64,000 bases of DNA from a virus. Lineage: Duplodnaviria; Caudoviricetes. This document shows positions 39,516 to 64,000 of the stretch, in pieces; position 1 is the stretch's first letter; each line of letters begins with the position of its first letter. The position numbers were made by a program, and so were the translations under genes. The DNA lies in IMG/VR virus record IMGVR_UViG_3300049472_000073, positions 1 through 64,000 of that record. One strand, 5' to 3'. A model generated the notes under the pieces. It was given only the letters and a program-made list of their open reading frames with translations. It was not told the DNA's origin and did no database searches.

Positions 39516-39911
39516 TTATTTAGAAACTATAAACTTGAGGTAGTTCCAAAGCCTAGGGAGTAAGGATTTGTACTTGAGCTTAAATACATTATAAGCCAGG
39601 GATTTAGATCTCTGTAAAGGTCTGCCACTGTGATCAAGTAGATCATCAGCACGTTTGTACCCAATGTGTAGCAAAGAGTCACTGAACTCCTTTGGCTCTA
39701 CTACTAGGCATCTATTAAAGTTTATGTAGCCTACAGAGCCGATTACGTAGATATACGGTACTACGCTGGTCTCGTCATGCTTTATGGCTATCTTCTCAAT
39801 ACGGTCTATTTTAGACAGTAATGGAGTTAGTTTAGAAGTATCTAGGTATACCTTGCGTAGGTGCTGTTTTACTTGCTTAAAAGGTGACAGATACATGTCT
39901 AGCTCATTCAT
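39516..39911 (-). CDS. hypothetical protein
   Basis: 131 aa, ATGA-coupled. Confidence 0.65.
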   Translation of the reverse strand: MNELDMYLSPFKQVKQHLRKVYLDTSKLTPLLSKIDRIEKIAIKHDETSVVPYIYVIGSVGYINFNRCLVVEPKEFSDSLLHIGYKRADDLLDHSGRPLQRSKSLAYNVFKLKYKSLLPRLWNYLKFIVSK

Positions 39912-40147
39912 TTAAGTAGCTCCCCTAAGTCATTATCAAAATCTACTAATGCTTTATATTCAGGACTCAACTCAGCTAAGTGATCTACTTCATCTATAGG
40001 GTGTCCCCAACTAATAAAATCTATATCTTCAGCAGTCTTATCCGTTGTTTGTTCCAGTAAATAGTATGCTCCATCACCAATAGAAGTAACTTCCCATTTA
40101 ACACCTTCAAATAGAATCACATTGCCTATTTTGAATTTAGGTCGCAT
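39908..40147 (-). CDS. SH3-like small protein, FDxxLxxLL family
   Basis: PKFKIGN start; ends YKALVDFDNDLGELLK. Confidence 0.75.
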   Translation of the reverse strand: MRPKFKIGNVILFEGVKWEVTSIGDGAYYLLEQTTDKTAEDIDFISWGHPIDEVDHLAELSPEYKALVDFDNDLGELLK

Positions 40148-40461
40148 TACTTATCTCCTAAACGGTCTTTCCAAAAGTCTACTCTCTCCTCTTCAGTATC
40201 ACCTTTAGAAGCGTCTTTAGCTTTCTGTTCGTCTTTATCAAGTTTATCTAATTGCTTATCTAAACCATCAATCTTTTCTTTATTCTCTTCAGTACGTCTT
40301 TGCAAATCACGATCTGTGATATCAGCAGCTATTACGCTATTATTAGCTTCAGCGTCTAATCTCTTAGATCTTTGAAAGATAGCGTAGAAAATGAGTCCTA
40401 CTACTCCTACAATAATACCCCAGTATTTACTAAAGAATGCTTTAATCTTTTCCATTACCAA
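40147..40461 (-). CDS. inner-membrane anchored coiled-coil protein (i-spanin-like candidate)
   Basis: N-terminal TM then coiled coil. Confidence 0.5.
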   Translation of the reverse strand: MVMEKIKAFFSKYWGIIVGVVGLIFYAIFQRSKRLDAEANNSVIAADITDRDLQRRTEENKEKIDGLDKQLDKLDKDEQKAKDASKGDTEEERVDFWKDRLGDK

Positions 40462-41122
40462 AAAATCTCCCCTTCATAATATCTTCATCTGACTTGTCTT
40501 TTAAACGCATGATTAACTCATTGTCGTTAAAGATCTTGTCACCTTTCAAGAGATTATTACAGTTAGATGATTCAGTCAAGGCTAAAACAATAGCCAGTGC
40601 ATCGTATATATCAGTAGGAGTATCTCGTTCCTTTAAAGTAATGTTTGATAAAGTCCTTGTAGGAGCGTCTATACGCTTCACTACGCAGTCTTTAGTAGGA
40701 GTCTTGTAGTCTCGCTTACCCTTAACCATAACAGGCTTAATCTTGAGTATAGCTCTCCAGGAAGGAGGTGGGATCTCTTCAAAATGTATGTCCTTACCTA
40801 CCTCATCTATACACATCTGTAGTATAGCATTGATAGTAGGGATAACGGCTGTACCACCTGTTAGCATCTTAGGGTTCATAAAGAACTGTTCTGTATAAAT
40901 ACCGTCAATTTTAAACTCTTTAATCAAGAATAGAAAGCTAGTCTTCATATAATTTAGACGCTTGCCTAGTGACCACTTATCATGGGTCCACAGCATCCCT
41001 GACTTTAAAATAGTCATAGAAGACTGACTAGGGTCTATCTCACAAATGACAAAGGCTAAGTGGCTAGCCGAAGGATCGACTACCAATAGCCTCTGTTTAC
41101 TTTCTATTGCTTTAATAGACAT
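40442..41122 (-). CDS. RuvC-like Holliday junction resolvase
   Basis: LVVDPS, IYTEQFF, IPPPSWR, DIYDALAI acidic motifs. Confidence 0.75.
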   Translation of the reverse strand: MSIKAIESKQRLLVVDPSASHLAFVICEIDPSQSSMTILKSGMLWTHDKWSLGKRLNYMKTSFLFLIKEFKIDGIYTEQFFMNPKMLTGGTAVIPTINAILQMCIDEVGKDIHFEEIPPPSWRAILKIKPVMVKGKRDYKTPTKDCVVKRIDAPTRTLSNITLKERDTPTDIYDALAIVLALTESSNCNNLLKGDKIFNDNELIMRLKDKSDEDIMKGRFFGNGKD

Positions 41123-41916
41123 TACTTCACGTTATGAAGAGTTTCTACCGTTTTATACATCTTCTCTTCAGATGGCTCAAGTTTACGCTCTTCTTTTTTA
41201 TAAGAAAGAGAAACTGCTTTATCAGCAAAACCAGTAGCCAAAGCTTCATCACTCATTAACCACATCTCAATAGAGCTACGAGCTTTAAATTCTTCATAGT
41301 TCATTTTAGCACGTTTAGCAATTACTACGTTGTGCTTCTCTACATAACGCTGAATGATAGTAAGACTACTTACTATCTTATCAAGTTCTCCACCTCCACC
41401 ACCACCGATACTAGCAGGGTGACTCATAAGAATAGCATGGTCAGTAACCCAACGCTGTGTACCGTATTGATGAATAATAAATGCCATACTAGCGCAGAGA
41501 TTTAAACAGATAGTGATTACAGGAGACTTTACAGACTTCATAGCAGTAATGAACTCAGTGCCACCCATTACGCTACCACCTGGGCTATCAATAGCAACAT
41601 AGATAGGAGCATCAGAATCTTCAGCCATAGCTTGTAATTGACTAATCTGAGCAGACATATCAGCAATAGGAGTATTAACCAGGATAATTCTATCTGCATC
41701 TAAACGCTCATCATGAAGCTTAACTTCTGTGATCTTATAAGCCTTAAATACTTTTGTTTCTGGTTGAGCTGGTTGTTCTACTGTAGCATGTTTTACAGGA
41801 TTAGAAACAACTGCCTTAGAGTTAAAAGCTTTAACAGTAATAACAGTTCCACCAATAACAGCAGAGGTAATTGTTAGGTATTTAAGTGCGGTAAAGATTG
41901 CGAGTTTATTAAGCAT
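41122..41916 (-). CDS. ClpP-like serine protease with N-terminal membrane anchor
   Basis: IDSPGGSV, CASMA (Ser), LMSHP (His), EALATGFAD. Confidence 0.85.
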   Translation of the reverse strand: MLNKLAIFTALKYLTITSAVIGGTVITVKAFNSKAVVSNPVKHATVEQPAQPETKVFKAYKITEVKLHDERLDADRIILVNTPIADMSAQISQLQAMAEDSDAPIYVAIDSPGGSVMGGTEFITAMKSVKSPVITICLNLCASMAFIIHQYGTQRWVTDHAILMSHPASIGGGGGGELDKIVSSLTIIQRYVEKHNVVIAKRAKMNYEEFKARSSIEMWLMSDEALATGFADKAVSLSYKKEERKLEPSEEKMYKTVETLHNVK

Positions 41917-41924
41917 ATCCTACC

Positions 41925-41953
41925 ATTATAACTATATGGTATGATTATTGCAA
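41925..41953 (-). promoter_or_regulatory. sigma70-type promoter
   Basis: TTGCAA-17 nt-TATAAT on minus strand upstream of ClpP-like gene. Confidence 0.65.
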
Positions 41954-41954
41954 G

Positions 41955-42245
41955 CTATTTTATTCGTTTCCTATGGGTATTATCCTTAGAGCAAACCCTT
42001 ACAGTACCCATTTTACCTAGCTCAATATCAGTAGTATTGGCTCCACACTTGTCACATTTTATGACATCTTTTGGTGTCACAGTGGCAATTTCTTCTACTT
42101 CGGTAGTAGCCTCTATGTCTTCGTATTTCTTTAGATTTTTCTGTTTTCTAGCAACTTGTTTTTTCAATTCCTTAACAAGCTTTTGAAGCTGTCTATTTTC
42201 GCCACGTAAGTCTTCTAGGTCTTTCGACCGACGATCTCTTGCCAT
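41955..42245 (-). CDS. coiled-coil plus zinc-ribbon protein
   Basis: Coiled coil then CDKC...VC..H. Confidence 0.65.
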   Translation of the reverse strand: MARDRRSKDLEDLRGENRQLQKLVKELKKQVARKQKNLKKYEDIEATTEVEEIATVTPKDVIKCDKCGANTTDIELGKMGTVRVCSKDNTHRKRIK

Positions 42246-42268
42246 TCAACATGATCTCCGCTCTACTT

Positions 42269-42278
42269 ATATTTGTTT
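42269..42278 (-). promoter_or_regulatory. one-mismatch late-motif variant AAACAAATAT
   Basis: Intergenic, upstream of 42245 on minus strand. Confidence 0.3.
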
Positions 42279-42282
42279 ATTT

Positions 42283-42963
42283 TTAAAGTTTGTTTGGTTG
42301 ATCTCTAAACTCTTGATATACTTCAGTAATAGAATACCTAACAGCCTCTTTGAAGAACAATAGATCATCATTACGTATCATGAAATCAGCCTCTATTGAG
42401 TCTATAGCGTCCTCAGATGCGTGATTATCCTTTGGTAGGTAAGCTGGCATAGGACGAACTAATTTCATCAACAAGCCACCTTTATTACGTATAAAGTCTA
42501 CTTCTTGTGGAAATCTAGTATCATCAAAGATAAATCTATTATTGTAGTGACGTTCTACGTCCATAGTCATTTCCATGACATGTATCCAGTAGTCCTGTGA
42601 GACACAGTTACGAAATAGATCTGTTCCAACAAATTGCATTAAGGTACGCGGAGTAACTCTTTGAGGAAAACTCTCAAGTGCTAGGATCATATTAACTTCT
42701 AGCTGACTAGATACAGGAATAAGATTATGATATGCATAATCAGTGAGCTTCTTAATAAAATCAATACTAGGCTCTACAGGTAAGTCAATAGACTCTTTTA
42801 GTACTGGGTCTACAAAATAGTGCATAGGTAATCCAAAGCACTCACTAAGCATTTCTTTAAGTGGCTTAGCAAAACTTAGGATTTTATATCCAAATTCTTC
42901 TTTTGCTATCTTAGCCGCAGTACTCTTACCACTACCCTTTTTACCAATTAATCCAATAATCAT
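42283..42963 (-). CDS. deoxynucleoside monophosphate kinase
   Basis: IIGLIGKKGSGKST, SFAKPLK, PRTLMQFVGTD, DDTRFPQE, HASE. Confidence 0.9.
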   Translation of the reverse strand: MIIGLIGKKGSGKSTAAKIAKEEFGYKILSFAKPLKEMLSECFGLPMHYFVDPVLKESIDLPVEPSIDFIKKLTDYAYHNLIPVSSQLEVNMILALESFPQRVTPRTLMQFVGTDLFRNCVSQDYWIHVMEMTMDVERHYNNRFIFDDTRFPQEVDFIRNKGGLLMKLVRPMPAYLPKDNHASEDAIDSIEADFMIRNDDLLFFKEAVRYSITEVYQEFRDQPNKL

Positions 42964-43262
42964 GATAACAACTCCTTTAACTGCTTATCAAACTGTTTAA
43001 CGGCTATTACAGAAGGATCTATACGAGCCACATATTCTTTATTAACTATAAAGGTATGTACAGCTACAGCGTATATATCACCATCTGCGTCCACACCTCT
43101 AGCTACTACTGTCTTCTTTTCTAAGTCAACATCATTAGGAAACCAATACGTTGTTAGCATCTTTATATGTAAGTCGTTAGCAGTAACCTTCTCTACTACC
43201 CCTGTATACTCTTCATTTACAGTAAACACTAAGTCACCTTTTTTAAACTTAGGCTTTTTCAT
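42960..43262 (-). CDS. SH3-like small protein, FDxxLxxLL family
   Basis: PKFKKGDLV start; ends AVKQFDKQLKELLS. Confidence 0.78.
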   Translation of the reverse strand: MKKPKFKKGDLVFTVNEEYTGVVEKVTANDLHIKMLTTYWFPNDVDLEKKTVVARGVDADGDIYAVAVHTFIVNKEYVARIDPSVIAVKQFDKQLKELLS

Positions 43263-43510
43263 TTCAGTAGTTCCTCTAGATCCTTGTCAAAATCCTTTAC
43301 TGCCTGATAACTAGGTACGTAAATATCGTCGAGTATAGTTCTGTCTGTTAGTTCTAGTTCTTCTGGTAGCTCATAAAATCCTTCTGAATTTAGAACCTCT
43401 ATAACGTCCACAATCCATACTATATTACCGTAATAATCTTCTCCAGATGTTCGTAATACATAAACAATGTCCTCGTCTCTGTATACATCTCCAGCTTTAA
43501 GTTTTCTCAT
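43259..43510 (-). CDS. small protein, FDxxLxxLL family
   Basis: KLKAGDVY start; ends AVKDFDKDLEELLK. Confidence 0.78.
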   Translation of the reverse strand: MRKLKAGDVYRDEDIVYVLRTSGEDYYGNIVWIVDVIEVLNSEGFYELPEELELTDRTILDDIYVPSYQAVKDFDKDLEELLK

Positions 43511-43805
43511 CTAATAGATCCCTTAGTTCTTTATCAAAATTACTGCCAGCCTTTAGCATAGCCGTAGCTTCTGCTACTATATCCTTGTGCTTCTGTCTAA
43601 TATAAGCAATGAAGGTATCTCTGCATTGATCACACCACTCTAAGTTAGGGTCCATAGTAGAATCACGTAGAATAAACACTGTCATTCTGTCGTGTAATTC
43701 GCTAAACTTAGCGTTGCTGGTAGGTAATTGATGTACATCAGGAGACGTAACATTCACATCTTCTGAGTAACCACAGAAGTCACAAGTACATTTTAATATT
43801 CTCAT
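43497..43805 (-). CDS. Cys-rich small protein, FDxxLxxLL family
   Basis: CTCDFC...CDQC; ends AGSNFDKELRDLLDEKT. Confidence 0.75.
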   Translation of the reverse strand: MRILKCTCDFCGYSEDVNVTSPDVHQLPTSNAKFSELHDRMTVFILRDSTMDPNLEWCDQCRDTFIAYIRQKHKDIVAEATAMLKAGSNFDKELRDLLDEKT

Positions 43806-44068
43806 TTTTCCCCCAGTAGATCTTCTAGGTCTTCATCAAACTTACGTGCCGCAGTCTCTGAGTACATAGATACAGTACACTCTTCTATAAAAGTGATAGG
43901 CTTAGTAGCCGACATACCATTTTTATTATCGTATGTGTATGAGGCGTTATCTCCGTTTATTGCTGTGATATAGAATATTGCGCCAGGTGCTAGAAAGCCC
44001 AGCCCCTCAAAACTACCCTTATCACTTCTAGAAGTAACTACTCTTCTAAATTCCCCAACTTTAAGCAT
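43802..44068 (-). CDS. small protein, FDxxLxxLL family
   Basis: LKVGE start; ends AARKFDEDLEDLLGEK. Confidence 0.78.
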   Translation of the reverse strand: MLKVGEFRRVVTSRSDKGSFEGLGFLAPGAIFYITAINGDNASYTYDNKNGMSATKPITFIEECTVSMYSETAARKFDEDLEDLLGEK

Positions 44069-44069
44069 A

Positions 44070-44465: not shown

Positions 44466-44481
44466 ATCCCCTCCCTATCTA

Positions 44482-46812: not shown

Positions 46813-47469
46813 TTAATCAAACGTAGTTGTAACTGTCAAGCCGTAAAATATATCTTTTTTAAATAGAGGTGTTTGGTAAAACACTTTGTAGCTGTCTAAC
46901 TGTACATAACCTGTATAGTTATTATAGATCGCATTAATTTCATTACGTAGCATTAGGTTCTTGTAATGAACCTCTTGAAAGAATAAGCCTCTATTAAGTT
47001 CTGAGCCTGTTTTAAATCGTGTATCTGGAGCTACTTCAGCTTCTCCGCCAGCTATATTATTAACTTCCGCTACTTCAGCCTCTACGTTCTTAATAGTAGC
47101 ATTCTTTTCTTTAGCCTTGTTGTACATTCGTAGAGCATTGTGAAAAGCAAACTGTTTCCAGAATACGTTTATGTCGTTACTGTGACTAGGTGGTGGCTCT
47201 ACAATAGCAGGACGCTCTACAGGGTCAGGCTTCTTCATACTCATAACATCAGTAGCCTTAGCTACCCCATAACCGAAATAAAACATGGTATTTATAATAA
47301 ATAGTGCCCATAGCAACTGCTTAAAGAATACCCAGTAGCTAAATGGAACTTTAGGTAATGTATGCTCAGGTGGACGTATTTTAGCTTTGTATTTAAAGCC
47401 AGTGATCTGATAGCTCCAGGTTCTAAGTATACGCTTAGGTTCTGGAATTACTTTGGTTATAATAGGCAT
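46813..47469 (-). CDS. membrane protein of unknown function
   Basis: One TM at about aa 45-70. Confidence 0.6.
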   Translation of the reverse strand: MPIITKVIPEPKRILRTWSYQITGFKYKAKIRPPEHTLPKVPFSYWVFFKQLLWALFIINTMFYFGYGVAKATDVMSMKKPDPVERPAIVEPPPSHSNDINVFWKQFAFHNALRMYNKAKEKNATIKNVEAEVAEVNNIAGGEAEVAPDTRFKTGSELNRGLFFQEVHYKNLMLRNEINAIYNNYTGYVQLDSYKVFYQTPLFKKDIFYGLTVTTTFD

Positions 47470-47699
47470 TATTCCTCCAATAGGTTATTTAGATCTTGAT
47501 CGAATTGCTTAGTAGCTCTGTAAGCCGAGTCTAGCTGATCATCATCACAACTACTATGATTCCAGAACCATTCTTTTCCGTCATGTAGAGTTTTAACTAT
47601 ATAACAGTCATTATCAACACGTAGTATTTCATAGGTCAGAGAAAGACTATCATCATTACCAGGATCTCTTACTACATCCCCTACTTTAAACTTAGGCAT
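47469..47699 (-). CDS. SH3-like small protein, FDxxLxxLL family
   Basis: PKFKVGDVV start; ends ATKQFDQDLNNLLEE. Confidence 0.78.
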   Translation of the reverse strand: MPKFKVGDVVRDPGNDDSLSLTYEILRVDNDCYIVKTLHDGKEWFWNHSSCDDDQLDSAYRATKQFDQDLNNLLEE

Positions 47700-48645
47700 C
47701 TTCTAATTCTTCCCCGTCATCAGTACTGAATGTGCCCCAAGAGTCCTTATTAGCTTTCTTGTACGCTTCGATAGCTTCTGGAGTATTAGGTAAAATAGCA
47801 TCAGATGTGATAACAAACTCACCTTCAGTAGAAGTGCTAGTTAAATGATTCTTAGCTACCTTAACTCTACACACAGTACCAAATACTACTTTACGTCCAT
47901 CTACCTTAGAAGAAAGCTCTCCACCTTCTTTAATCTGTAAGCATAGAGATAAAGGGAACCAAATCTTCTCACCACCATTAGGAATCATTGTAGCCATTCC
48001 GCCTGGGAACTCTGGTGGCTTAATATAAGCTTGCGTAAGCATAACTAGACCTACTGTATGGTCACAGTCTGTTTGTCTGGTAGAAGCGATTCTCTTCATA
48101 ATAATAGGGTTATAATACCCAATTACCGCAGCATTCTTTTGAGGACCGTATTTCTTTTTAATCTTACCAGTCTTATCAATCTCTAAAGATTCAATAGAAG
48201 GAGTAGAGGCAACAGAGTCCCAAAAGATCATAATGTCCCTTGGAAGTCTACCTGTCTTAACATCCTCAATTTTCTGAGAAATATAGTTGTATACATCCTC
48301 TAAGTACTCCAGATCCTCTCTGATAATACATCTACTTTTACTAATATCTAGACCCATACGCTCGGCTCTAGACCAGTCCATTTTATTTTCTGTAATGATA
48401 AAGATAGGAGTAATCCCCTGTTTTTGAGCTTGTACAGCCGCGTGAATCATAATACTGGTCTTACCAGAGTTACTTAATCCGTACATAGCTGTCACAGCCC
48501 CCATACGAAAACCAGGCATACCAATAGCTTCACTCAACTCCTTTTGTAAAACAACATCCACATCAGGTTTATACACGATCTCTGTGTGATCTTCATTGCT
48601 TGAATAGTTCTCTAAATCAAATTCTTCTTTTTGTTTTTTACTCAT
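47692..48645 (-). CDS. RecA/UvsX-like recombinase
   Basis: GLSNSGKTS Walker A, IFWDSVAS Walker B, IPNGGEKIWF, VKVAKN. Confidence 0.88.
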   Translation of the reverse strand: MSKKQKEEFDLENYSSNEDHTEIVYKPDVDVVLQKELSEAIGMPGFRMGAVTAMYGLSNSGKTSIMIHAAVQAQKQGITPIFIITENKMDWSRAERMGLDISKSRCIIREDLEYLEDVYNYISQKIEDVKTGRLPRDIMIFWDSVASTPSIESLEIDKTGKIKKKYGPQKNAAVIGYYNPIIMKRIASTRQTDCDHTVGLVMLTQAYIKPPEFPGGMATMIPNGGEKIWFPLSLCLQIKEGGELSSKVDGRKVVFGTVCRVKVAKNHLTSTSTEGEFVITSDAILPNTPEAIEAYKKANKDSWGTFSTDDGEELEDA

Positions 48646-49270
48646 TGTAGTACTCCCATTTAAAACCTTTATGATGTTTAAGTTTACCTTTACAGCATTG
48701 TATAATATGTCCTGAATTAAATCCAGGTATTTTACTTCCTGTAAAGATAGTTTCTTCTCCAGTTACTAAACACGTAGCCTTATATCTCTTACTCCACTCG
48801 GGCTTTCTTATCCCTTTATTAGGACTAGGACCCATTTTCATACCCTTATTCCAAGGAGTTCTTCCCATAGTGGACTTAGCTATGTTACTTCTGTAATATA
48901 CTGAACTCCCATTATTAGCTAATTTTATGTTATAGCCATGCTTATCTGTAAGAGTCTCTAATGCTATAATGGCATCAATTTCAGCCTTGTCTAAATCAGC
49001 TTTATTTGTGTAACGTCCTAAAATACAATACTCAAAATTATCTACTCCATACTTTTTTATGGCCCTAGTTAATATACTATACCTAGAAAATCTAGGATTG
49101 CAATGTTGAACGAATCTATCTTTAAATTTTTGCGTGGTCTGACCTACATATCCCTTATCGTTTTTCTTATTTCTTATCAAGTAAACTACTCCATAAATAG
49201 GGAGTTTCTTTTCTTCCTCTAACTTATGCTTATAAGCTTGTAGATCAAAGGAGCTACTCATGTGATTCAA
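48638..49270 (-). CDS. GIY-YIG homing endonuclease with NUMOD-type tail
   Basis: GVVYLIRN...GYVGQT...RFVQH; PWNKG; IIQCCKG...HKGFKWEY. Confidence 0.85.
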   Translation of the reverse strand: MNHMSSSFDLQAYKHKLEEEKKLPIYGVVYLIRNKKNDKGYVGQTTQKFKDRFVQHCNPRFSRYSILTRAIKKYGVDNFEYCILGRYTNKADLDKAEIDAIIALETLTDKHGYNIKLANNGSSVYYRSNIAKSTMGRTPWNKGMKMGPSPNKGIRKPEWSKRYKATCLVTGEETIFTGSKIPGFNSGHIIQCCKGKLKHHKGFKWEYYNE

Positions 49271-49925: not shown

Positions 49926-50287
49926 TTAATTATGTTACTCATTGACATTTGTGATCCATCCGCAGCAATAAAGTATCTCCAGTAAGCCATGTTTTCCCTA
50001 GCCCTGTTCTCGGATAACCCATCTACTCCAGAATAGGGGTATGTACTATGAGGTATAGGAGCCGATCTGATAATATCATGTTCCCCAAACCAATTATAGT
50101 GAGCTACTATACGGTATATAGCTGCGTTCTTTTTAAGCTCCTCGTACTCAGCTTCTAGCTTCTTATTTTGCTTATTAGAACGCACACCGTTTATTTTATT
50201 GTCTATCATTTGTACTAAACCAAAAATAGCCATTAGCAATAGTAACAGTACTAAAGCTATACAACAAAAAATCAACATTTCTGTCAT
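49901..50287 (-). CDS. membrane-anchored hypothetical protein
   Basis: N-terminal TM helix. Confidence 0.6.
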   Translation of the reverse strand: MTEMLIFCCIALVLLLLLMAIFGLVQMIDNKINGVRSNKQNKKLEAEYEELKKNAAIYRIVAHYNWFGEHDIIRSAPIPHSTYPYSGVDGLSENRARENMAYWRYFIAADGSQMSMSNIIKWELEEVK

Positions 50288-55049: not shown

Positions 55050-56972
55050 TCACCAATCGTCGTTATTTTTAGCTTTTTTATCTTTCTTAGCATCCCTTAA
55101 GTCTTCTAATGCTTCTTGTTCGATATAAGATAGAGGCTTAACTTTACCAGTTACACCTTCCCAACCGAAGTCAAGAGAGAATAGTCCACCTAGGGTATTC
55201 TTTAAGCAGTTAATCGTAATAAACTTATCATTCTGTGGGGTATCTGGGCTAAACCCTTCTCTGTATACACCAAAAATAGTTCTAAAGTTCTGTTCTAACA
55301 CAGAAGCTCCCTTTACTTGTCTCATTGAGTACAAAGGAGTAGAGGCATCACCAGCACTCTTAGGAGGCTGTACAAGGACCACCACACACGCTTCTAGATC
55401 AGTAGATAAATCCTTTAGCTGAGTAGCTAAGAAGGCACCATTGGCCGTAGGATCACTATAAGGGCCTACTAATAGCTCTAAGTAGTCAATCACTACTAGT
55501 TTGATTTTTTCACCTAGTTGTTCTTGTCTTTTTAGTACTTGTTGCTTAATGTCTTCTACTGTAGTACCTGATCTAAACCAGAAGTCTACATTCTTAAATT
55601 CTCCAGCTAATTTAGCATCCCATTCACGATAATGGTCCTTATCTTGCTTATAAGTCTCGATTACGTCTTCAAACTTGTGTCCACTGAGTCGGCTAATAAG
55701 ACGAGCATATACTAATGGCCATCCCATGTCTAGTGAACAAAATACTGATCTAGTACCAGCTAATGAAGTGTTATGTAGCATGTTAAACGCTAGGGCAGTC
55801 TTAGCAGATCCTGGTGCCCCTAAAATTCCAGTGAGCATAGAGGTAGTAAGCACGATCTTTTCGTCTAATGCTTGTATACCTGTATATACCCTGTTCTTTT
55901 CAATATTCACAGCAAAGTCTTTAAACTTGCTGGATAGGTCTTCAATTTTAATTAAGTCAGTATTGTCTTTTTTCTTACACGCATCTTTACTAGGGCAGAT
56001 CTCTTGTAAGAACTCATGGTCTTTACAAGCATACGTTTTACCCTGCCATGTCGGACTGTATACAACTCTAATGATGTTGTTCCAGATCTCATCTTTATCA
56101 AACGGTTCATCACCTGTACGTCTAGCTTGTAACTCAGCCGCACCTTTTAGCATCCTATATGCTACTTCTTTTGGTAGTCCTTGAGCTGAAATAGAAGCAC
56201 ATAAAGACATAAGTGCGTTACTTCTGTTACCTGATTTAAAGTATCCATTTAGAATAGCTTCTCTACAAGGTGGGAGCCACTTAACTTTAAGTACTAGATC
56301 TTTTACGTCATTACTAAGCTCTGCATTTTTATTTACTACAGGAGCTTCCTCAGACTTAGGCTTAAGATCACTTGGTAACTCAACTGATAGAGTCTTCCAC
56401 TCTACAGCGTTATCAAGATCCTGAGCAATAGTCTTAATAGTAGCTGAGTCAGTCTCAGCCAATGTCTCAATAGAGATAGGTAACTTAAACAGCCCACTAC
56501 TAGGGTGTCTAGTATATGGTGCTCTGAATAGACGGTTCTCATTATAGATAACCGTATCCCAAGTATTACAGTCACCTGCTAATTGCTTAGCAATGCTTTT
56601 AATATCTTGGGAGGTATATGAGTTAGAGAGTCTAGTTTCAAGGCTAAATCCTTTGTTACCGCTAAAACATATATTAATCTGCTCATTGGTAAAACCGTAT
56701 TGGATAAGTCTATTATATACCGTAAGGGCATCATCCTTAGCAAGATCAATATTTTCCTTACTATCGAAGTCAAATACGAGTTTATCTGTAACTAGCCCTG
56801 TAAAGCCAGCTACAGACTTCTTCTTTTGAAACTCACTAAAGTGTAGATCATTATACAAGAACAGAGATACATACCAGTCAGTATCAGTGCTGTTAATAAC
56901 ATTAGTCAGCTCTGCTTCTGGAACCAGAATACCTTTATCTTTAATACCCTTACAAATACGAATGTACTTCAT
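55050..56972 (-). CDS. primase-helicase (AEP primase plus DnaB-like helicase)
   Basis: LVFDFD, FSGNKGF, RLFRAPYT, RSNALM PriCT; GAPGSAKT, VIDYLE, VLVQP, QVKGAS, KN. Confidence 0.88.
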   Translation of the reverse strand: MKYIRICKGIKDKGILVPEAELTNVINSTDTDWYVSLFLYNDLHFSEFQKKKSVAGFTGLVTDKLVFDFDSKENIDLAKDDALTVYNRLIQYGFTNEQINICFSGNKGFSLETRLSNSYTSQDIKSIAKQLAGDCNTWDTVIYNENRLFRAPYTRHPSSGLFKLPISIETLAETDSATIKTIAQDLDNAVEWKTLSVELPSDLKPKSEEAPVVNKNAELSNDVKDLVLKVKWLPPCREAILNGYFKSGNRSNALMSLCASISAQGLPKEVAYRMLKGAAELQARRTGDEPFDKDEIWNNIIRVVYSPTWQGKTYACKDHEFLQEICPSKDACKKKDNTDLIKIEDLSSKFKDFAVNIEKNRVYTGIQALDEKIVLTTSMLTGILGAPGSAKTALAFNMLHNTSLAGTRSVFCSLDMGWPLVYARLISRLSGHKFEDVIETYKQDKDHYREWDAKLAGEFKNVDFWFRSGTTVEDIKQQVLKRQEQLGEKIKLVVIDYLELLVGPYSDPTANGAFLATQLKDLSTDLEACVVVLVQPPKSAGDASTPLYSMRQVKGASVLEQNFRTIFGVYREGFSPDTPQNDKFITINCLKNTLGGLFSLDFGWEGVTGKVKPLSYIEQEALEDLRDAKKDKKAKNNDDW

Positions 56973-57484
56973 TACCCATCTCCTTCAATTATATTCAGCT
57001 TAGCAAACTCTCCGAACAATTCCAATGCTTTTTTATTATACGCTCTAGCAGCGTCTTCTTCTACTGAAAAACTACCTAAGCCATACTTAATACCACTATG
57101 CTTTATTAATCCTACCCACTTAGTATTAGTGGAGTTTCTATAGACCCCTTTATATTTAGAAGTCTTTTTTCTTTTTTGTATGCTCTGATTTTGAGCATTT
57201 CCTTTTGCAGTACATAATCGTAAATTCTCTCTAGTGTTATCTAGAGTATTGCCATTAATGTGATCTACAAACATTCCTTTAGGGGCATCCATAATAAATC
57301 TATGTAAAGCTGTGTTGTAATAACCTCCACCTGGTTTCTTTATAGTCATCATGACATAAAAAGTCCCCATAGAATTTATGCTTACGCATAGTGCGTGTGG
57401 AAGCACTCTATCATAGTCTTCATCTGACACATAAGTATCAATGTACCCATGTGTCTTAGAAGTAATTGTAATTGGATTACTCAT
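56972..57484 (-). CDS. HNH-AP2 homing endonuclease
   Basis: LHRFIM...VDHINGNTLDNTRENLR; SKYKGVY...GSFSVEEDAARAYN. Confidence 0.9.
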   Translation of the reverse strand: MSNPITITSKTHGYIDTYVSDEDYDRVLPHALCVSINSMGTFYVMMTIKKPGGGYYNTALHRFIMDAPKGMFVDHINGNTLDNTRENLRLCTAKGNAQNQSIQKRKKTSKYKGVYRNSTNTKWVGLIKHSGIKYGLGSFSVEEDAARAYNKKALELFGEFAKLNIIEGDG

Positions 57485-57974
57485 CGGTTACTAAAACAAG
57501 GTCAGCGACTTTCCAGGGCTGCCAAGAGTCTGCTCGTTTTTTAAGCTTTGGATTAGCTTCTACTTGTTCTTCTGTTGGTTTCTTACTTAAAGTAATAAAC
57601 TGTCCTTTTTTCAAAGAAACATCAATATCAATTTTAATATAAGAACCAGACCCGTCTTTCTTTTTAGCTACCATACCGATTGTTGTGAATTTTGCCATTT
57701 TGTTGTTCTCCTTCTTTTCTTTCGATTTAATACTACCTGTCTCTAATAGTTCTGTCAACTCCTGATCAAAACTATATTTTAACTTTATTTTTCTTTTGTG
57801 CATTAGCATTACTTTACCTTGACGAGTCTTGATAGGCAAGTAGTTCTGCATAGACCTAAGATTTATATAATCAGATGGAGTCTCTACACACGTACCTACA
57901 AACCACTTATCGTACTTAGGGATATAATACTCAACTAGATCACCAGGGTTAATCTGAATCGTTATCTGCTCCAT
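57477..57974 (-). CDS. in-frame fusion of SH3-like FDxxLxxLL protein and a 73-aa protein (internal start 57698)
   Basis: INPGDLV start, internal FDQELTELL, internal AAGGAG SD before ATG at 57698. Confidence 0.7.
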   Translation of the reverse strand: MEQITIQINPGDLVEYYIPKYDKWFVGTCVETPSDYINLRSMQNYLPIKTRQGKVMLMHKRKIKLKYSFDQELTELLETGSIKSKEKKENNKMAKFTTIGMVAKKKDGSGSYIKIDIDVSLKKGQFITLSKKPTEEQVEANPKLKKRADSWQPWKVADLVLVTDE

Positions 57975-58107
57975 TGATTAATTCCTCTAGTTCTTTGTCG
58001 AAGTCTACCATAGCTTGTTCTATTTTCATAGGTCTATATATCATAGCTTCATAAAGATTTTTCCATTCAGCTTTTATTCTTGTAAGATCGTCTTTATCAT
58101 CACTCAT
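57949..58107 (-). CDS. micro-ORF (52 aa), FDxxLxxLL family
   Basis: MSDDKDDL...AMVDFDKELEELINGADNDSD. Confidence 0.7.
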   Translation of the reverse strand: MSDDKDDLTRIKAEWKNLYEAMIYRPMKIEQAMVDFDKELEELINGADNDSD

Positions 58108-58201
58108 TGAGTAGGTCCTCTAAATCCTTATCAAAGTCTTCTAAAGCTTTTTTAGTTTTGAGTATTTCTTTCCAGTTTGGTCCGTATAACATCTGGTTCA
58201 T
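58100..58201 (-). CDS. micro-ORF (33 aa), FDxxLxxLL family
   Basis: MNQMLYGPNWKEILKTKKALEDFDKDLEDLLNE. Confidence 0.65.
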   Translation of the reverse strand: MNQMLYGPNWKEILKTKKALEDFDKDLEDLLNE

Positions 58202-58569: not shown

Positions 58570-58658
58570 ATAATCTCCTGTTAAATTGGGTGCCCCTGTT
58601 TTACTAATGTAGTAGGGGCCACACTACGAATACTCTTAGAGAAGAGATCCAATCAAAA

Positions 58659-59087: not shown

Positions 59088-59096
59088 ATTTACTCC

Positions 59097-59675: not shown

Positions 59676-59684
59676 AGTTCCTCC

Positions 59685-59897
59685 TTAGTTAATACGAATG
59701 ATATTCTGTCTTACAAGTTCTAGGTTTAATTTAGCTCTAGCTTCTACTAGTGATTTAGTTTCTAATAATACAGTGCGTTTTGCAACATAATTCTTAGAAT
59801 TTACCATAATTAATGTTACTAGAAATGTGCCATCCTCTTCTACAATACCGATGAATGGTTCATTCTTTAAAATAATGTCTGTCTTTGGTTGTTTCAT
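59685..59897 (-). CDS. hypothetical protein
   Basis: 70 aa, AGGAGGG SD. Confidence 0.65.
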   Translation of the reverse strand: MKQPKTDIILKNEPFIGIVEEDGTFLVTLIMVNSKNYVAKRTVLLETKSLVEARAKLNLELVRQNIIRIN

Positions 59898-59945
59898 ATC
59901 CCCTCCTGTAAGTAAGCTATCAGTTTATAGATTTTATGTAAAGAA

Positions 59946-60197
59946 CTATTTTAATAATTCTTCTAGTTCCTGATCAAATTGCTGTAATGCCTCATATCCT
60001 GGTAGATAGGTACATCTTTCCTCTAAAAACATGATATGCCATGTATCTTCCATTCCCAGGTCATATCTTCTAGTTCCGTTTATATATTTTCCCGTAAAAG
60101 CCATTTTGTTATCGTCTATTTTTTCTATTTTAAATAAAGGAGACTCTCTATAGATTTCTGGTAATTGATATACATCCCCTACTTTAGGGTATCTCAT
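59946..60197 (-). CDS. small protein, FDxxLxxLL family
   Basis: PKVGDVY start; ends ALQQFDQELEELLK. Confidence 0.78.
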   Translation of the reverse strand: MRYPKVGDVYQLPEIYRESPLFKIEKIDDNKMAFTGKYINGTRRYDLGMEDTWHIMFLEERCTYLPGYEALQQFDQELEELLK

Positions 60198-60466
60198 TTT
60201 AGCAGTTCCTCTAATTCTTGATCAAATTGCTGTAAAGCTTTATATGATTTATTGATTATAAAATTAAGGTGTCTACCTCTAGTTAACCCAAGAAGCCACC
60301 AATCTTCGTCCTCAAACTCTGGCCTATCCACTAGATAGCGTACAAATACCTTTTTGTTTCCATTTTTATCTTCTACTGGATCTATATCCAATACTTCCAT
60401 TAACCCTTTATACGGAATATCAACTATGCTAATTATATCTCCTATTTTTGGCCATTCAATACTCAT
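60194..60466 (-). CDS. small protein, FDxxLxxLL family
   Basis: PKIGDII start; ends ALQQFDQELEELLK. Confidence 0.78.
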   Translation of the reverse strand: MSIEWPKIGDIISIVDIPYKGLMEVLDIDPVEDKNGNKKVFVRYLVDRPEFEDEDWWLLGLTRGRHLNFIINKSYKALQQFDQELEELLK

Positions 60467-60717
60467 TTCAACAATTCCTCTAATTGCTGATCAAAAATGG
60501 CTTCTGCTTTATTAACAGGGTCTAGATAATAGTTCTCCATAAGGTCTACGTATCCCTCTTCGGCAGGTATACTAAGGTCCCCAAAATGTAGCTCTCCTAT
60601 GTATGTTAAAAAAGAATCAATATGCCGTTTTTGGTAGATTGCTGTAATTATAAAATAGTTATTTGCGTGTCCATGTCTTCTATCTATATATTTATATCCA
60701 ATTTTAGGCTTAATCAT
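60463..60717 (-). CDS. small protein, FDxxLxxLL family
   Basis: PKIGYKY start; ends AEAIFDQQLEELLK. Confidence 0.78.
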   Translation of the reverse strand: MIKPKIGYKYIDRRHGHANNYFIITAIYQKRHIDSFLTYIGELHFGDLSIPAEEGYVDLMENYYLDPVNKAEAIFDQQLEELLK

Positions 60718-60841
60718 TTACAAGCTCCTGTAGCTCATCATCAAACTGCTTTAAAGCTTTTTCTACAATTAACATCTCAGCTTCCATTTTGGCAAGCATT
60801 TTATCTCTTTCAAGTAGGGCTTGTTTTATTGCTTCGTACAT
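60710..60841 (-). CDS. micro-ORF (43 aa), FDxxLxxLL family
   Basis: MYEAIKQALL...ALKQFDDELQELVND. Confidence 0.7.
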   Translation of the reverse strand: MYEAIKQALLERDKMLAKMEAEMLIVEKALKQFDDELQELVND

Positions 60842-61278
60842 TATTTAAGTAGCTCCTCTAAGTCCTTATCAAATTCTTTCATTACCTTAAGACCACCTAG
60901 TACCTTAGCCTCTTTTTCACTAATGTCTTCTTTACGAACATAAAGCATATTAGGCTCCATCCATTTAAAATTATATGGAACTGGGGTGTCAAACATCATA
61001 AACGGTAGATGTTTTTTTATATACTTAGTACTCATAAGAGGGTTCTGCTTACGTATATACCTATATACCAGTTTTTCAAATTGCTTGTCAGTATCTTCTC
61101 TCCAAACACAGTGATTAAATACTGCATCAGCTACTTCATATCCAAGAGTCCTAACTAGATAATTAGTTAATTTGCTAATAGGGTCCTCTTTACTTCTATG
61201 ATTACCTCTAAACCTATATACAGAAGGTAGAGGTATAGCATAGGTGGTCTCAGGGCTGAGTCTTCTACTTTGAGTCAC
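60841..61278 (-). CDS. protein with FDxxLxxLL tail
   Basis: GTG start; ends VMKEFDKDLEELLK. Confidence 0.75.
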   Translation of the reverse strand: MTQSRRLSPETTYAIPLPSVYRFRGNHRSKEDPISKLTNYLVRTLGYEVADAVFNHCVWREDTDKQFEKLVYRYIRKQNPLMSTKYIKKHLPFMMFDTPVPYNFKWMEPNMLYVRKEDISEKEAKVLGGLKVMKEFDKDLEELLK

Positions 61279-61513
61279 TTAGTAGTTCCTCTAGTTCTTT
61301 ATCGAACTGTTGCTGTGCAGCATATACATAGTCTAACTGAAAGTGCCTTGCTTTAAAATGATACCCATGCTGATCTTTGGCCCAGTTTGTGTCAGGACCT
61401 TCTAGCTCATCTATAATTATAGTCTCTAAGCTAGGATTTACATGAACTACTGTACCTCTAAGGTCTGTTTCTTTATCCCAAACTCTATCTCCTACTTTAA
61501 ATCTAGACTTCAT
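61265..61513 (-). CDS. SH3-like small protein, FDxxLxxLL family
   Basis: RFKVGDRV start; ends AQQQFDKELEELLSDSK. Confidence 0.78.
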   Translation of the reverse strand: MKSRFKVGDRVWDKETDLRGTVVHVNPSLETIIIDELEGPDTNWAKDQHGYHFKARHFQLDYVYAAQQQFDKELEELLSDSK

Positions 61514-61727
61514 TTAATAGTTTCTCCAAATCCTCGTCAAATTGCTTTATAGCCAAGTATTCTGGGCAAGGTTTAAACCCATGTACAAAATCACTTAGAT
61601 GATACCTAATGCCATCAATAGCTCCAACAAAACAAACGTATACATATTGAGATTCATAATTAGCCACAACGCATACGATATCTGATCTTCCTCTAGCTCT
61701 GTAATACTGACCTTTTTTAATTTCCAT
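61503..61727 (-). CDS. small protein, FDxxLxxLL family
   Basis: Ends AIKQFDEDLEKLLNEV; paralog of 63058. Confidence 0.78.
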   Translation of the reverse strand: MEIKKGQYYRARGRSDIVCVVANYESQYVYVCFVGAIDGIRYHLSDFVHGFKPCPEYLAIKQFDEDLEKLLNEV

Positions 61728-61983
61728 TGATTAGTTCCTCTAGGTCTTTATCAAACTGTCTTTTGGCTAGTATAACACTTATTGGCTCTTTAGTCACTAC
61801 ATGTTCTAGTGCTACTGAAGCATCATTATCAATACTTGCTAAAGTTCCTACTAAAAATGGCTGTATTCTGTATACAGGGTGCTCTGCTCCCCCAAACCAA
61901 TAAGTCAATTTCTCAAAATCAGAATTAGAATGCGCTTCATATTGACCAAGCCACCCTAATGCCTCAACAGCATAAACTCTCAT
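61717..61983 (-). CDS. small protein, FDxxLxxLL family
   Basis: Ends AKRQFDKDLEELINGN. Confidence 0.75.
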   Translation of the reverse strand: MRVYAVEALGWLGQYEAHSNSDFEKLTYWFGGAEHPVYRIQPFLVGTLASIDNDASVALEHVVTKEPISVILAKRQFDKDLEELINGN

Positions 61984-63065
61984 ACCTTCTCCAGGTCATC
62001 TGTCTTGCCTTTATGACAGTAATTAAAATACGGACACTTGCCCCCGTAATAATCGGTACATGAGCTGGGGTTCTTAAAGAACACTTCCTTCTTAATCATC
62101 TCATTAACCACGTTAAAGTTGTCAAGTACCATCTCTTCTACTTTGGGATTGATGTCATCTAGTATGATGTTAATCTCAGCTTCTAAATTAGTCTTTTCAT
62201 TCCACTCACCATGACAGCGTTTACCGTTCACATTAGCATCACAGGTCTTAGCTCTGGAGTACTCACTGTTATCGCATTTAGAGCACACCTTAGTCTTATT
62301 ACGCTTTAAGTTCTTTAAGTATACAATAAACCCAGCTTTAGGTAGCTGCTCATGGAGAGCATACAAAGATAACTGTGAACTAGTACGTACACAGTCTTCT
62401 TCATAATAGCTCATAGAGCTAGTAGATTTATTATCTAGGACATAGGTGTTACCGTCATCCATTTCAGCTATCAAGTCAATGACTCCTGTTACAGCGTCAC
62501 CTTGATCATTTAAAAGCTCTATAGTCTTCTGTACAGCTATTACCTTCTTAATCCTAGGCATGACCTTATCTTCATAAGCTTTTAGAATGTAGCCAGCTTT
62601 ACGACGCAATGATAGCCAATTACAGTAGTTAAGATACTTAAACTCAGACTCTTTGAACTGCCTAAATGCAGCTTGTTTCTTATATACAGCTACTTGCTCA
62701 TAGGCTTCTAATGGGTCAGTACCCTCTATGCCTAACTCTTCCATAGCTTGTTTCATTTTAAATAGGTCAGACTCTTCTAATACTTCTGAGTCATAGTCTC
62801 TAGCAGCGTATACAATCTGTGTTGACAGAGGTAGAGAAATCTTTTTACCGTTTATAAAGCCATTCTCCCATTCCTTTTCAAATACTTCTAATGGGTCTTT
62901 ACCGTCTCTAAGTAATAGAGAGTTTAATGCAGTATCAATAGCAGATCCCCACAGTAGTGCTGCGGAGGTAGTATTAGGACGTAGACGTTCCTTGTAATGT
63001 AGGTAATGACTATACCCACACTTTAAATAGCGATTTAATTGCGAGTATGAAAGTTTATTACTCAT
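61980..63065 (-). CDS. PD-(D/E)XK nuclease (RecB/Cas4-like exonuclease)
   Basis: LSYSQL...C, GVIDLI, VLDNKS, QLSLY, C-terminal C..C..C cluster. Confidence 0.85.
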   Translation of the reverse strand: MSNKLSYSQLNRYLKCGYSHYLHYKERLRPNTTSAALLWGSAIDTALNSLLLRDGKDPLEVFEKEWENGFINGKKISLPLSTQIVYAARDYDSEVLEESDLFKMKQAMEELGIEGTDPLEAYEQVAVYKKQAAFRQFKESEFKYLNYCNWLSLRRKAGYILKAYEDKVMPRIKKVIAVQKTIELLNDQGDAVTGVIDLIAEMDDGNTYVLDNKSTSSMSYYEEDCVRTSSQLSLYALHEQLPKAGFIVYLKNLKRNKTKVCSKCDNSEYSRAKTCDANVNGKRCHGEWNEKTNLEAEINIILDDINPKVEEMVLDNFNVVNEMIKKEVFFKNPSSCTDYYGGKCPYFNYCHKGKTDDLEKV

Positions 63066-63294
63066 TTAATAGTTTCTCCAAATCTTCATCGAATTGCTTT
63101 GTGGCCATAAATTCTGGACAATAATCAAACATAGCTTCAAAGTCGGTTCTGTAATACGTAATACGTTCTTCTATTTTATAAGAAGGCATAGCAATAAAAT
63201 CAAAACGTACATAAGTGTAGTCAACGCTGGCTATTACTCCCACAATATCTGATCTTCCTTTAGCTTTATAATAATCTCCTACGCTAATTTCCAT
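63058..63294 (-). CDS. small protein, FDxxLxxLL family
   Basis: Ends ATKQFDEDLEKLLNE; paralog of 61503. Confidence 0.78.
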   Translation of the reverse strand: MEISVGDYYKAKGRSDIVGVIASVDYTYVRFDFIAMPSYKIEERITYYRTDFEAMFDYCPEFMATKQFDEDLEKLLNE

Positions 63295-63532
63295 TTAATA
63301 GCTCCTCTAGTTCTTTATCGAACTGCTGTATAGCCACATAAGAATGGGCCAGATTATCATCATCACACCACTCAAACGGAAACATAACTTGCTCTCCTTC
63401 ATCCCATGTCCCATAAGGATCATTTCTCATAGTAATAAAATAGGAGCTATTTTCTCTATTCACTTTATTGATCTTATATACTACTCCGTGACAGTCTTCT
63501 ACTATATCCCCTACCTTAAACTTTGGCTTCAT
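63284..63532 (-). CDS. SH3-like small protein, FDxxLxxLL family
   Basis: PKFKVGDIV start; ends AIQQFDKELEELLNGN. Confidence 0.78.
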   Translation of the reverse strand: MKPKFKVGDIVEDCHGVVYKINKVNRENSSYFITMRNDPYGTWDEGEQVMFPFEWCDDDNLAHSYVAIQQFDKELEELLNGN

Positions 63533-63536
63533 ATAA

Positions 63537-63764
63537 CTATTCTCCCAGAAGTTCTGCTAATTGTCTATCAAATTCTTCTACTACAGGATCTCTAGTGCAG
63601 GTAAAGTGCTTTAAGATGGTATCTGCCCAGTACGAAGTGGGTACTCCACTTTTTGTCCTAACCTTCCAGGCTTCATGCTCTAGGGTATCTATGCGGCTAA
63701 CTATGGTCAGTCTGTCGTCTTCAAAAGCTTCCCATACCTGACCTACTCTAATACCGCTACTCAT
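63537..63764 (-). CDS. small protein, FDxxLxxLL family
   Basis: IRVGQVW start; ends VVEEFDRQLAELLGE. Confidence 0.75.
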   Translation of the reverse strand: MSSGIRVGQVWEAFEDDRLTIVSRIDTLEHEAWKVRTKSGVPTSYWADTILKHFTCTRDPVVEEFDRQLAELLGE

Positions 63765-64000
63765 CTAAAAGCTCCTTTAGTTCTCTATCAAAGCCAGACT
63801 CGGCTATTTTCCTGATTAGTAAAGGAGTAAGACCATAAAAAATCCTATGTATATCCAATGTAAAACAGAATCTTTTATCGTCTAAAGAACCTACATATTT
63901 ATAGCCATTTGGTACTTCTATAATAGTATATTCGCATAACTGGTAGTTATCTACGAAACTATGCTTAGTTACTGGAGAAAAGCTGGCATTAATAGTGGTA
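63757..64000 (-). CDS. 5'-truncated ORF, FDxxLxxLL family
   Basis: Open to window edge; ends IAESGFDRELKELLDE. Confidence 0.7.
   Translation of the reverse strand, partial: TTINASFSPVTKHSFVDNYQLCEYTIIEVPNGYKYVGSLDDKRFCFTLDIHRIFYGLTPLLIRKIAESGFDRELKELLDE

Follow-up and report, generated by a model that had tools for sequence, protein, structure and literature searches.

A shared C-terminal helix on about 41 small proteins of an uncultured phage, a candidate handle for one partner

The DNA analysed here is a stretch of 64,000 nucleotides (the window; positions 1 to 64,000 of IMG/VR record IMGVR_UViG_3300049472_000073), corresponding to the first 64 kb of the 88,154-bp contig of an uncultured phage with a GC content of 37%. 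From position 39,900 on, the genes of the window lie on the minus strand. In this arm and its continuation, about 41 small proteins share one amphipathic helix of some 13 residues, here called the tail, which is C-terminal in 40 of them and internal in one. On the evidence of the sequences, the helix is portable, is specific to its lineage and is carried by the third of the genome that evolves fastest; it matches no described family or system that we found. We favor the reading that the tail is a common handle for one genome-specific partner, to which we assign a probability of roughly 0.6. In such an arrangement, the portable helix would dock on this single "reader" and the fast-evolving bodies would supply differing activities or targets.

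Occurrence of the tail and the proteins that carry it

The consensus of the tail is A-[LV]-x-x-F-D-x-[EDQ]-L-x-x-L-[LIV]. An initial annotation of the window had listed 21 open reading frames (ORFs) as sharing one such helix. This was borne out by a six-frame search, in which A-x-x-x-F-D-x-[EDQ]-L-x-x-L-[LIV] as well as the pattern F[DN]xxLxxL[LIV] were present at 21 of the 21 sites. All copies lie on the minus strand, in three frames, and end 1-8 residues ahead of the stop codon, the sole exception being an internal copy at 57744-57770. The full contig contains 40 strict matches, 38 of them at ORF C-termini, against a mean of 2.1 matches overall and 0.23 at ORF ends in 100 three-mer block shuffles. 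Two more ORFs (genome positions 72227-72460 and 73173-73424) have F-E replacing F-D, which adds to 39 strict copies of the tail. The same six-frame search found zero copies in the structural arm (1-39,900; plus strand, assigned on the basis of strand and skew). In the non-structural arm the tail is present on 37 of about 114 genes of at least 40 amino acids (aa), by a rough gene count, and the carriers are dispersed across about 45 kb. Numbering from the Phe as position 0, the hydrophobic positions (-3), 0, +4 and +7 follow an a-d heptad spacing; e is hydrophobic as well, and g is Ala.

The carriers identified in the window are given below. Orthologs are from a sister phage (JGI 3300071638), for which the comparison covers 39.6 kb of an 87,031-bp contig, with 26 tails in the part read. 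SD denotes the Shine-Dalgarno sequence.

39908-40147, minus strand: 79-aa barrel-type tail protein; motif at 39914-39940
42960-43262, minus strand: 100-aa barrel-type tail protein; motif at 42966-42992
43259-43510, minus strand: 83-aa barrel-type tail protein; motif at 43265-43291
43497-43805, minus strand: 102-aa Cys-rich (CxxC...CxxC) non-barrel body with tail; motif at 43512-43538
43802-44068, minus strand: 88-aa tail protein; codons +5/+6 are GAA GAT, not SD-like, and a separate SD lies 3' of the tail
47469-47699, minus strand: 76-aa barrel-type protein; +5/+6 are N-N, with a separate SD (GAGGA) past the tail; ortholog 56% identical
57477-57974, minus strand: 165-aa two-domain protein made of a barrel, the internal tail (57744-57770), a K/E-rich linker and a basic C-terminal domain
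57949-58107, minus strand: 52-aa mini-protein with eight acidic or polar residues after the tail
58100-58201, minus strand: 33-aa ORF, hardly more than the tail; may be a real mini-protein or an eroded cassette
59946-60197, minus strand: 83-aa barrel-type protein, last of its run, with the next start codon 54 nt off; E-E is GAA GAA, not SD-like
60194-60466, minus strand: 90-aa barrel-type protein; the E-E codons hold GAGGA; ATGA overlap with the next gene
60463-60717, minus strand: 84-aa tail protein
60710-60841, minus strand: 43-aa non-barrel mini-protein with tail, too short for a barrel
60841-61278, minus strand: 145-aa non-barrel protein, mostly helical in its model; tail helix (121-144) of low confidence
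61265-61513, minus strand: 82-aa barrel-type tail protein
61503-61727, minus strand: 74-aa tail protein, paralog of 63058-63294 (E 5e-11)
61717-61983, minus strand: 88-aa tail protein without the KFKVGD strand; only its C-terminal half aligns with the sister phage, tail kept
63058-63294, minus strand: 78-aa tail protein
63284-63532, minus strand: 82-aa barrel-type protein; modelled with strands between residues 10 and 52 and a helix at 63-80
63537-63764, minus strand: 75-aa tail protein; +5/+6 are A-E, with a separate SD past the tail; ortholog 53% identical
63757-64000, minus strand: 3' part of a 115-aa non-barrel tail protein that continues to genome position 64104

Core proteins of the two phages are 85-96% identical, whereas tail proteins reach 18-63% (coverage-scaled), with a median of 43%. 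Other small proteins have a median of 70%, significantly above the tail proteins (Mann-Whitney p = 8e-4). The carriers are thus the fast-evolving part of the genome.

The initial annotation had recognized no described family with such a tail, and no family in the libraries searched matches it. A profile of the tail family, run against 1.84 billion representative proteins, gave 117 matches at E <= 1e-3, all without names. About 105 of these are proteins of 53-102 aa that end in the same tail, and no known family emerged among them. Ten tail proteins scanned against Pfam and PHROGs gave no significant family; the barrel-type ones in this set had no Pfam match at E <= 1 and no PHROG match at E <= 0.01, with KOW, Tudor and DUF2158 included. 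For the tail proteins, tblastn against GenBank phages yielded no match, PADLOC only weak ones (best E 0.002) and the ESM Atlas only unnamed clusters. Scans with the DNA pattern of the tail returned 69 singleton loci in IMG/VR, none with several tails, and six chance matches in JGI metagenome contigs. No description of such a tag was found in the literature.

To what extent the bodies are related was assessed after removal of the tail. In BLASTP comparisons of the stripped bodies, a threshold of E <= 0.01 linked 11 and one of E <= 0.1 linked 22. Across an alignment of 29 members, only the N-terminal K-V-G-D strand and the tail are conserved, and no N-terminal motif is common to all carriers. 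The AlphaFold2 model of 63284-63532 built on this alignment (predicted local distance difference test, pLDDT, 94.8; predicted template modelling score, pTM, 0.78) shows a small barrel made of four strands and a bridge, with the strands lying between residues 10 and 52 and helix 63-80 directly after the last of them. VIA-align related residues 1-63 of the model to Tudor, KOW and SH3-like chains (Z 6.0-6.7, root-mean-square deviation 2.0-2.6 over 51-57 residues), where a Z under 8 may reflect merely a common arrangement; Foldseek matches of the barrel were weak (E ~6e-3). The predicted fold is that of a small SH3/Tudor/KOW-like beta-barrel, in agreement with what the annotation had read from the KFKVGD-type strand.

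About 30 bodies, roughly three quarters of the carriers, make up one expanded SH3/Tudor-like barrel family. At least 10 carriers differ; these comprise the Cys-rich 102-aa protein, proteins of 115, 145 and 162 aa, the 88-aa protein without the strand, and ORFs of 33, 43, 52 and 56 aa. The earlier picture of variable domains joined to a constant helix therefore stands in part: unrelated bodies do occur, but about three quarters of the carriers are paralogs. Among the bodies that had looked unrelated in the initial annotation, the 145-aa one (60841-61278) is predicted to be mostly helical (pLDDT 78, in a model that rests on three sequences only), the tail helix being the least confident segment (pLDDT ~51-53). 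A homolog search with this protein returned itself alone, and its model gave no fold match in the PDB. The sister-phage ortholog (63% identity) keeps the tail; a homolog of the body in a further phage locus (L124) is without such a tail.

The two-domain protein 57477-57974 is also kept as a fusion in the sister phage, including an identical Y-S-F-D-Q-E-L-T-E-L-L-E-T-G-S-I-K stretch. In P0101, a metagenomic protein of 162 aa, barrel and tail are fused in frame to a domain that by eye resembles DUF3310. A Rosetta-stone reading of the 165-aa fusion was not adopted, since overlapping ATGA junctions ease read-through fusion; P0101 is a second case.

Selection on the peptide and embedded translation signals

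The residues that define the tail are written with varied codons. Phe is TTT in 30 cases and TTC in 9, Asp is GAT in 28 and GAC in 11, Ala uses four codons, and Leu five to six. Synonymous usage at A(-4), F(0), D(+1), L(+4) and L(+7) is that of the bodies and of large genes. Where paralogs within the genome share a tail residue, they use the same codon at a frequency of 0.431; codon usage predicts 0.434, so that gene conversion is not homogenizing the tails. For residues shared by orthologs of the two phages, codon identity amounts to 0.60 (tail) and 0.63 (body), and the amino-acid identity of these orthologs is 67% and 47%, respectively. As judged from these comparisons, the tail is selected as a peptide, not as DNA. 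Such protein-level selection had been proposed from the fixed F, D and Leu residues with their varied codons, and the variation indeed equals background usage. Synonymous sites are as free in the tail as in the bodies, except at +5.

At this position, Glu is encoded by GAG in 22 of 26 cases, against a background of 40% (p = 5.5e-6), and the K, R and G codons found there likewise end in G. Together with the codon that follows, they spell GAGGA or AAGGAG. The bias in the E-E codons arises because these contain the ribosome-binding site (RBS) of the overlapping gene that follows. Its start codon lies 1-2 nt past the L-L codons in 27 of 40 tails, typically in company with an SD-like +5/+6, in the form AAATGA, AATGGA or GATGAG. 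Where +5/+6 is not SD-like (43802, 47469, 63537, 72685 and 81795), a separate SD is found downstream, with the ATG 8-14 nt further on; F-D...L...LL is preserved in these tails too. On this comparison, the A...F-D...L...L-L core is independent of the RBS, and RBS plus start codon explain part of the E-E pair. The description of the helix as acidic needs to be qualified to the same extent: acidic residues are present, but E-E at +5/+6 is partly imposed by the SD of the next gene. The helix also carries a second, nucleic-acid code, in which GAGGAR or AAGGAG at +5/+6 acts as the SD of the following gene. A degron with a free carboxylate was considered for this phage and rejected, as 1-8 variable residues follow L-L.

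Dialects in related phages and candidate readers

Beyond the window, the same arm encodes the pair that served as anchor for comparison with other phages:

genome 73417-75806 (L001 10417-12806), minus strand: MoxR-type ATPase and zincin-metallopeptidase/vWA fusion (DUF2201)

Loci were defined as the surroundings of zincin-vWA (DUF2201) homologs, and small ORFs were scored as positive when they shared their last 14 residues with at least three others of the locus. The 81 test stretches comprised 78 IMG/VR loci, L087, L088 and the phage's own region. In these, 159 of 2,165 small ORFs qualified, versus 1 of 904 in 69 control IMG/VR loci; the same scoring applied to internal segments gave 1 (control) and 4 (test). 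Eleven distinct loci are clearly tag-positive, each with its own ending. On other uncultured phage contigs (L087, L088, L097, L098, L120, L122, L124, L139, L142, L145 and L150), 6-19 small ORFs per ~20 kb carry a lineage-specific ending, or dialect; in two of them the ending is basic (Y-M-K-x-x-K-K and L-K-x-L-K). The dialects are as follows.

L087: E-F-N-K-D-L-K-D-L-I-N-E
L139: H-x-x-x-F-N-x-K-M-E-E-L-L-K
L088: [FY]-x-T-x-x-E-[VI]-x-E-L-I-K
L120: E-[VI]-K-D-L-L-K
L097: E-I-x-E-W-L-K
L098 and L150: K-L-x-x-F-L-K
L122: I-L-E-Y-K
L142 and L145: basic endings

Conserved residues of the dialects are again encoded by varied codons, and several dialects are without SD-like codons. Related bodies take on the ending of the phage in which they reside. 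Thus, members of the 162-aa body family end in C-F-D-N-Q-L-E-T-L-I here, in F-E-V-D-L-K-E-L-I in L087 and in D-N-E-I-R-E-W-L-K in L097, and barrel bodies, detected with a hidden Markov model of the body only, carry the local ending in L087, L097 and L120. A single reader, shared by the carriers and co-evolving with them, predicts just this pattern: a motif that shifts on every carrier of a genome at once, even on unrelated bodies, with no gene conversion involved. A genome-wide shift is predicted equally by a tag that recognizes itself. The initial annotation had proposed docking on one partner, and the related phages, as read from their sequences, conform to what such a partner predicts.

Portability of the tail points in the same direction, the helix being found on barrels, on the mostly helical 145-aa protein, on the Cys-rich, 162-aa and 115-aa proteins and on proteins of 33-56 aa, and internally in the two-domain protein. 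Several observations weigh against a common handle. Common descent explains much of the sharing, since about three quarters of the carriers are paralogs. In the barrel family the helix is modelled with high confidence (AlphaFold2 pLDDT ~92-95, pTM 0.78), and its hydrophobic face may pack on the barrel rather than be free. The RBS accounts for some of the acidity of the helix (E-E), and the ORFs of 33-52 aa could be eroded cassettes. We infer the single reader and the outcome of its binding (delivery, processing, timed removal or assembly), and likewise whatever the terms "adaptor", "protease/unfoldase docking" and "counter-defence" in the initial annotation imply.

A 96-aa protein (41955-42245, minus strand) begins its motifs with a basic helix reminiscent of a leucine zipper (Leu/Val in heptads, Asn in the core), after which comes a C-x-x-C...C motif like that of a zinc ribbon. 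It was considered as a candidate basic partner of the acidic tail.

A specific form of the handle idea, which we think unlikely, casts the phage's own MoxR-type AAA+ ATPase and zincin-vWA fusion as the reader. The metal ion-dependent adhesion site (MIDAS) of the vWA domain would capture the invariant Asp, which would be a natural MIDAS ligand, and the machine would remodel, cleave or remove the tagged proteins. The zincin-vWA protein matches Pfam DUF2201_N and DUF2201 (PF13203, E 9e-15; PF09967, E 8e-12), and the adjacent 382-aa MoxR-class protein matches AAA_5 only weakly (E 0.006, below the Pfam cut-off). Both H-E-x-x-H...H (H80, E81, H84, H89) and the MIDAS signature D-x-S-G-S...T...D (D286, S288, S290, T345, D367) are invariant in 30 zincin-vWA homologs, and the pair is 92-95% conserved in the sister phage, against the median of 43% for tail proteins. 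Shared C-terminal tags occur at 11 of 68 distinct DUF2201 loci and at none of 69 control loci, and vWA-MoxR-coupled systems offer an analogue in which a zincin peptidase accompanies a small diverging precursor with a conserved C-terminal peptide (PMC7159879). However, 54 of the 68 loci are without a tag, including a 33-member sister clade of the phage's own clade, and a cultured N4-like Vibrio phage carries the pair without tags. Tag-positive loci are confined to 3-4 clades, so that the association between tag and DUF2201 cannot be treated as independent of ancestry. Among gene families encoded up to 10 kb from the zincin-vWA gene, none shows a positive association with the presence of tags, and no cleavage site common to all carriers is visible. 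Homologs of MoxR/zincin-vWA occur widely among phages (N4-like phages, Bacillus AR9/PBS1, Thermus phiFa and 357 IMG/VR contigs); the role of the pair in phages appears to be undescribed.

The main alternative to a common handle dispenses with a shared partner. The helix would be the capping helix of one expanded barrel fold, and the non-barrel carriers would be chimeras that retained a 3' end on account of the start signals it provides for the next gene. The clustering of 11-22 bodies by BLASTP, the KVGD strand and the helix as the two conserved parts, and the high pLDDT of the helix in the barrel model are all consistent with this, as are the SD and ATG embedded in the tail and the existence of fusions with downstream genes (P0101, 57477-57974). 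We nevertheless consider it distinctly unlikely. Non-barrel bodies retain F, D, A and L although the phages have diverged, and these residues are also kept where the tail is without an SD; in the 145-aa model, confidence is lowest in the tail helix; and the adoption of each phage's dialect by the 162-aa body is not predicted by an intramolecular contact.

The tails might also bind one another, a zipper-like helix giving homo- or hetero-oligomers of the ~41 proteins, with the family itself as reader. This is suggested by the a-d-a-d hydrophobic spacing with its extra hydrophobic residue at e and Ala at g, and a self-recognizing tag would, as said, also shift genome-wide between phages. It is made quite improbable by the length of the helix, about two heptads only, and by its strongly acidic character in this phage.

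Finally, the peptide might be a by-product of a repeated nucleic-acid element, be it an RBS cassette, a promoter or a recombination site; this idea is largely refuted and very improbable. The preference for GAG at +5, the fixed offset of the next ATG in 27 of 40 tails and the resemblance of TTTGAT to a -35 box speak for it. Against it, synonymous sites away from +5 vary as freely in the tail as they do in the bodies, TTC at the Phe codon (9 of 39 cases) breaks TTGA, and other dialects keep Leu, Phe and Trp with varied codons and without SD-like ones. In particular, a promoter of the form TTGAT...TATTAA was rejected, as its -10-like element would overlap the next start codon, leaving no leader, and TTC/GAC variants break the -35 box.

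If one partner reads the helix, as the common-handle reading holds, a third of the phage's genes, all now "hypothetical", would constitute one functional system. The same logic, in other dialects, is seen in at least 10 further uncultured phage contigs and may be a general principle for deploying fast-evolving small proteins. A broader proposal is that helix tags are a widespread, undescribed organization of phage early proteomes, each lineage marking in its dialect dozens of fast-evolving proteins for host takeover or anti-defence, a library whose helix MoxR/zincin-vWA reads in order to load, process or clear it on schedule; we regard this as improbable. The tail would also serve as a ready-made portable tag, and the superposition of helix, RBS and overlapping start illustrates how a compact genome can build self-coupling gene cassettes.

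Neighboring genes and comparison with known systems

Besides tail proteins, the minus-strand arm in the window encodes a RuvC-like protein, a ClpP-family protease, a deoxynucleoside monophosphate kinase, an exonuclease, a subtilase, a RecA-like protein, an alliinase-like pyridoxal phosphate (PLP) enzyme, a family-A DNA polymerase, a DnaB-primase, ERF and a PD-(D/E)XK nuclease. Past the end of the window, ThyX, ribonucleotide reductase, a sigma-like factor and the MoxR-type ATPase with the zincin-metallopeptidase/vWA fusion (DUF2201) follow. The DNA polymerase is only ~30% identical to those of the closest cultured phages and, used as query, found no relative among the IMG/VR loci.

Several of these genes deserve mention. 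The ClpP-family protease (41122-41916, minus strand; Pfam E 5.5e-25) has a hydrophobic N-terminal segment; as it lies in the replication arm and not in the head module, it is probably not a prohead protease. The PLP enzyme (50284-51174, minus strand), of Alliinase_C type (Pfam E 5.5e-24), is unusual in a phage and 92% identical in the sister phage. Two genes on the minus strand resemble homing endonucleases (56972-57484 and 48638-49270), one with an HNH/AP2-like and the other with a GIY-YIG-like motif, both recognized by eye only; the first is missing at the equivalent junction of the sister phage, which has instead a LAGLIDADG-like gene after ThyX. The sigma-like factor (genome 67971-68450, L001 4971-5450, minus strand; PHROG sigma factor, E 5e-8) and the RecA-like protein (47692-48645, minus strand) are only 31% and 38% identical, respectively, to their sister-phage counterparts, among adjoining genes with 85-99% identity, a pattern that suggests module replacement or very fast evolution. 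A small c-type cytochrome gene (genome 82990-83268, plus strand) stands amid tail genes; its sister-phage ortholog carries Pfam Cytochrom_C.

Small proteins with a shared short peptide are known from other systems. In phage T4, a capsid-targeting sequence is present at the N-terminus of a handful of proteins (IPI-III and Alt) and is cut by the prohead protease at a defined motif. Like the tail, it is a short common peptide on diverse, fast-evolving small phage proteins, and in T4 it serves a single destination. The tag described here differs in that it is C-terminal or internal and helical; the genes that carry it make up a third of the total and lie without exception in the early/replication arm, and none of them has it at the N-terminus, where no motif is common to all carriers.

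Variable binding domains joined to a constant C-terminal docking element are also found in poxvirus ankyrin/PRANC F-box-like proteins and in bacterial AAA+ adaptors such as SspB, whose body is a small beta-barrel. The tail proteins would resemble these in pairing a variable body with a constant C-terminal element. Neither group is related to them by sequence or in Pfam, and the predicted helix follows the last strand directly, without a flexible linker between body and tail. SspB combines a substrate-binding domain, a flexible linker and a ClpX-binding C-terminal peptide; as far as Pfam and the model tell, its domain and linker lack a counterpart here. Nor does the tail resemble a PIP-box or clamp-binding peptide (Q-x-x-[LIM]-x-x-[FY]-[FY] or Q-L-[SD]-L-F), its profile, Q-F-D-x-[EDQ]-L-x-x-L-L, being devoid of an aromatic pair; nor did the annotated proteins reveal a clamp gene.

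A sequence search of the PDB with the tail profile returned only the N-terminal helix of PEX19 bound to PEX3 (PDB 3MK4). This is likewise an acidic amphipathic docking helix, with D-R-E-L-E-E-L-L and A-L-D-D-F-D, but it has the two elements in the opposite order and is eukaryotic and unrelated. The match (E 2.2) is at chance level and merely pictures how an acidic amphipathic helix can dock.

In vWA-MoxR-coupled peptide processing, a zincin metallopeptidase cleaves small, quickly diverging precursors that have a conserved C-terminal peptide, for instance FxSxx-COOH (Kaur et al. 2020, PMC7159879). The peptide types named in that account are FxSxx, RxD, a run of four or more acidic residues and an FtsH-associated type. 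The phage described here is alike in encoding a zincin with HExxH, a vWA with an intact MIDAS and an adjacent MoxR-class ATPase, and in that its small proteins diverge fast around a conserved C-terminal peptide (tail 67%, bodies 47%). It differs in having peptidase and vWA in one protein and ~41 candidate substrates over 45 kb in place of one adjacent precursor; its tail is a helix that fits none of the named types. Moreover, most phages with the MoxR/zincin-vWA pair are without tags, and cleavage in the present case is putative. The annotated genes revealed neither a radical-SAM nor a STAND/AP-ATPase partner. Altogether, the tail departs from the T4 tag and from SspB-type adaptors in the defining features tested, and from vWA-MoxR systems in some of theirs; what it would share with them is a logic only.

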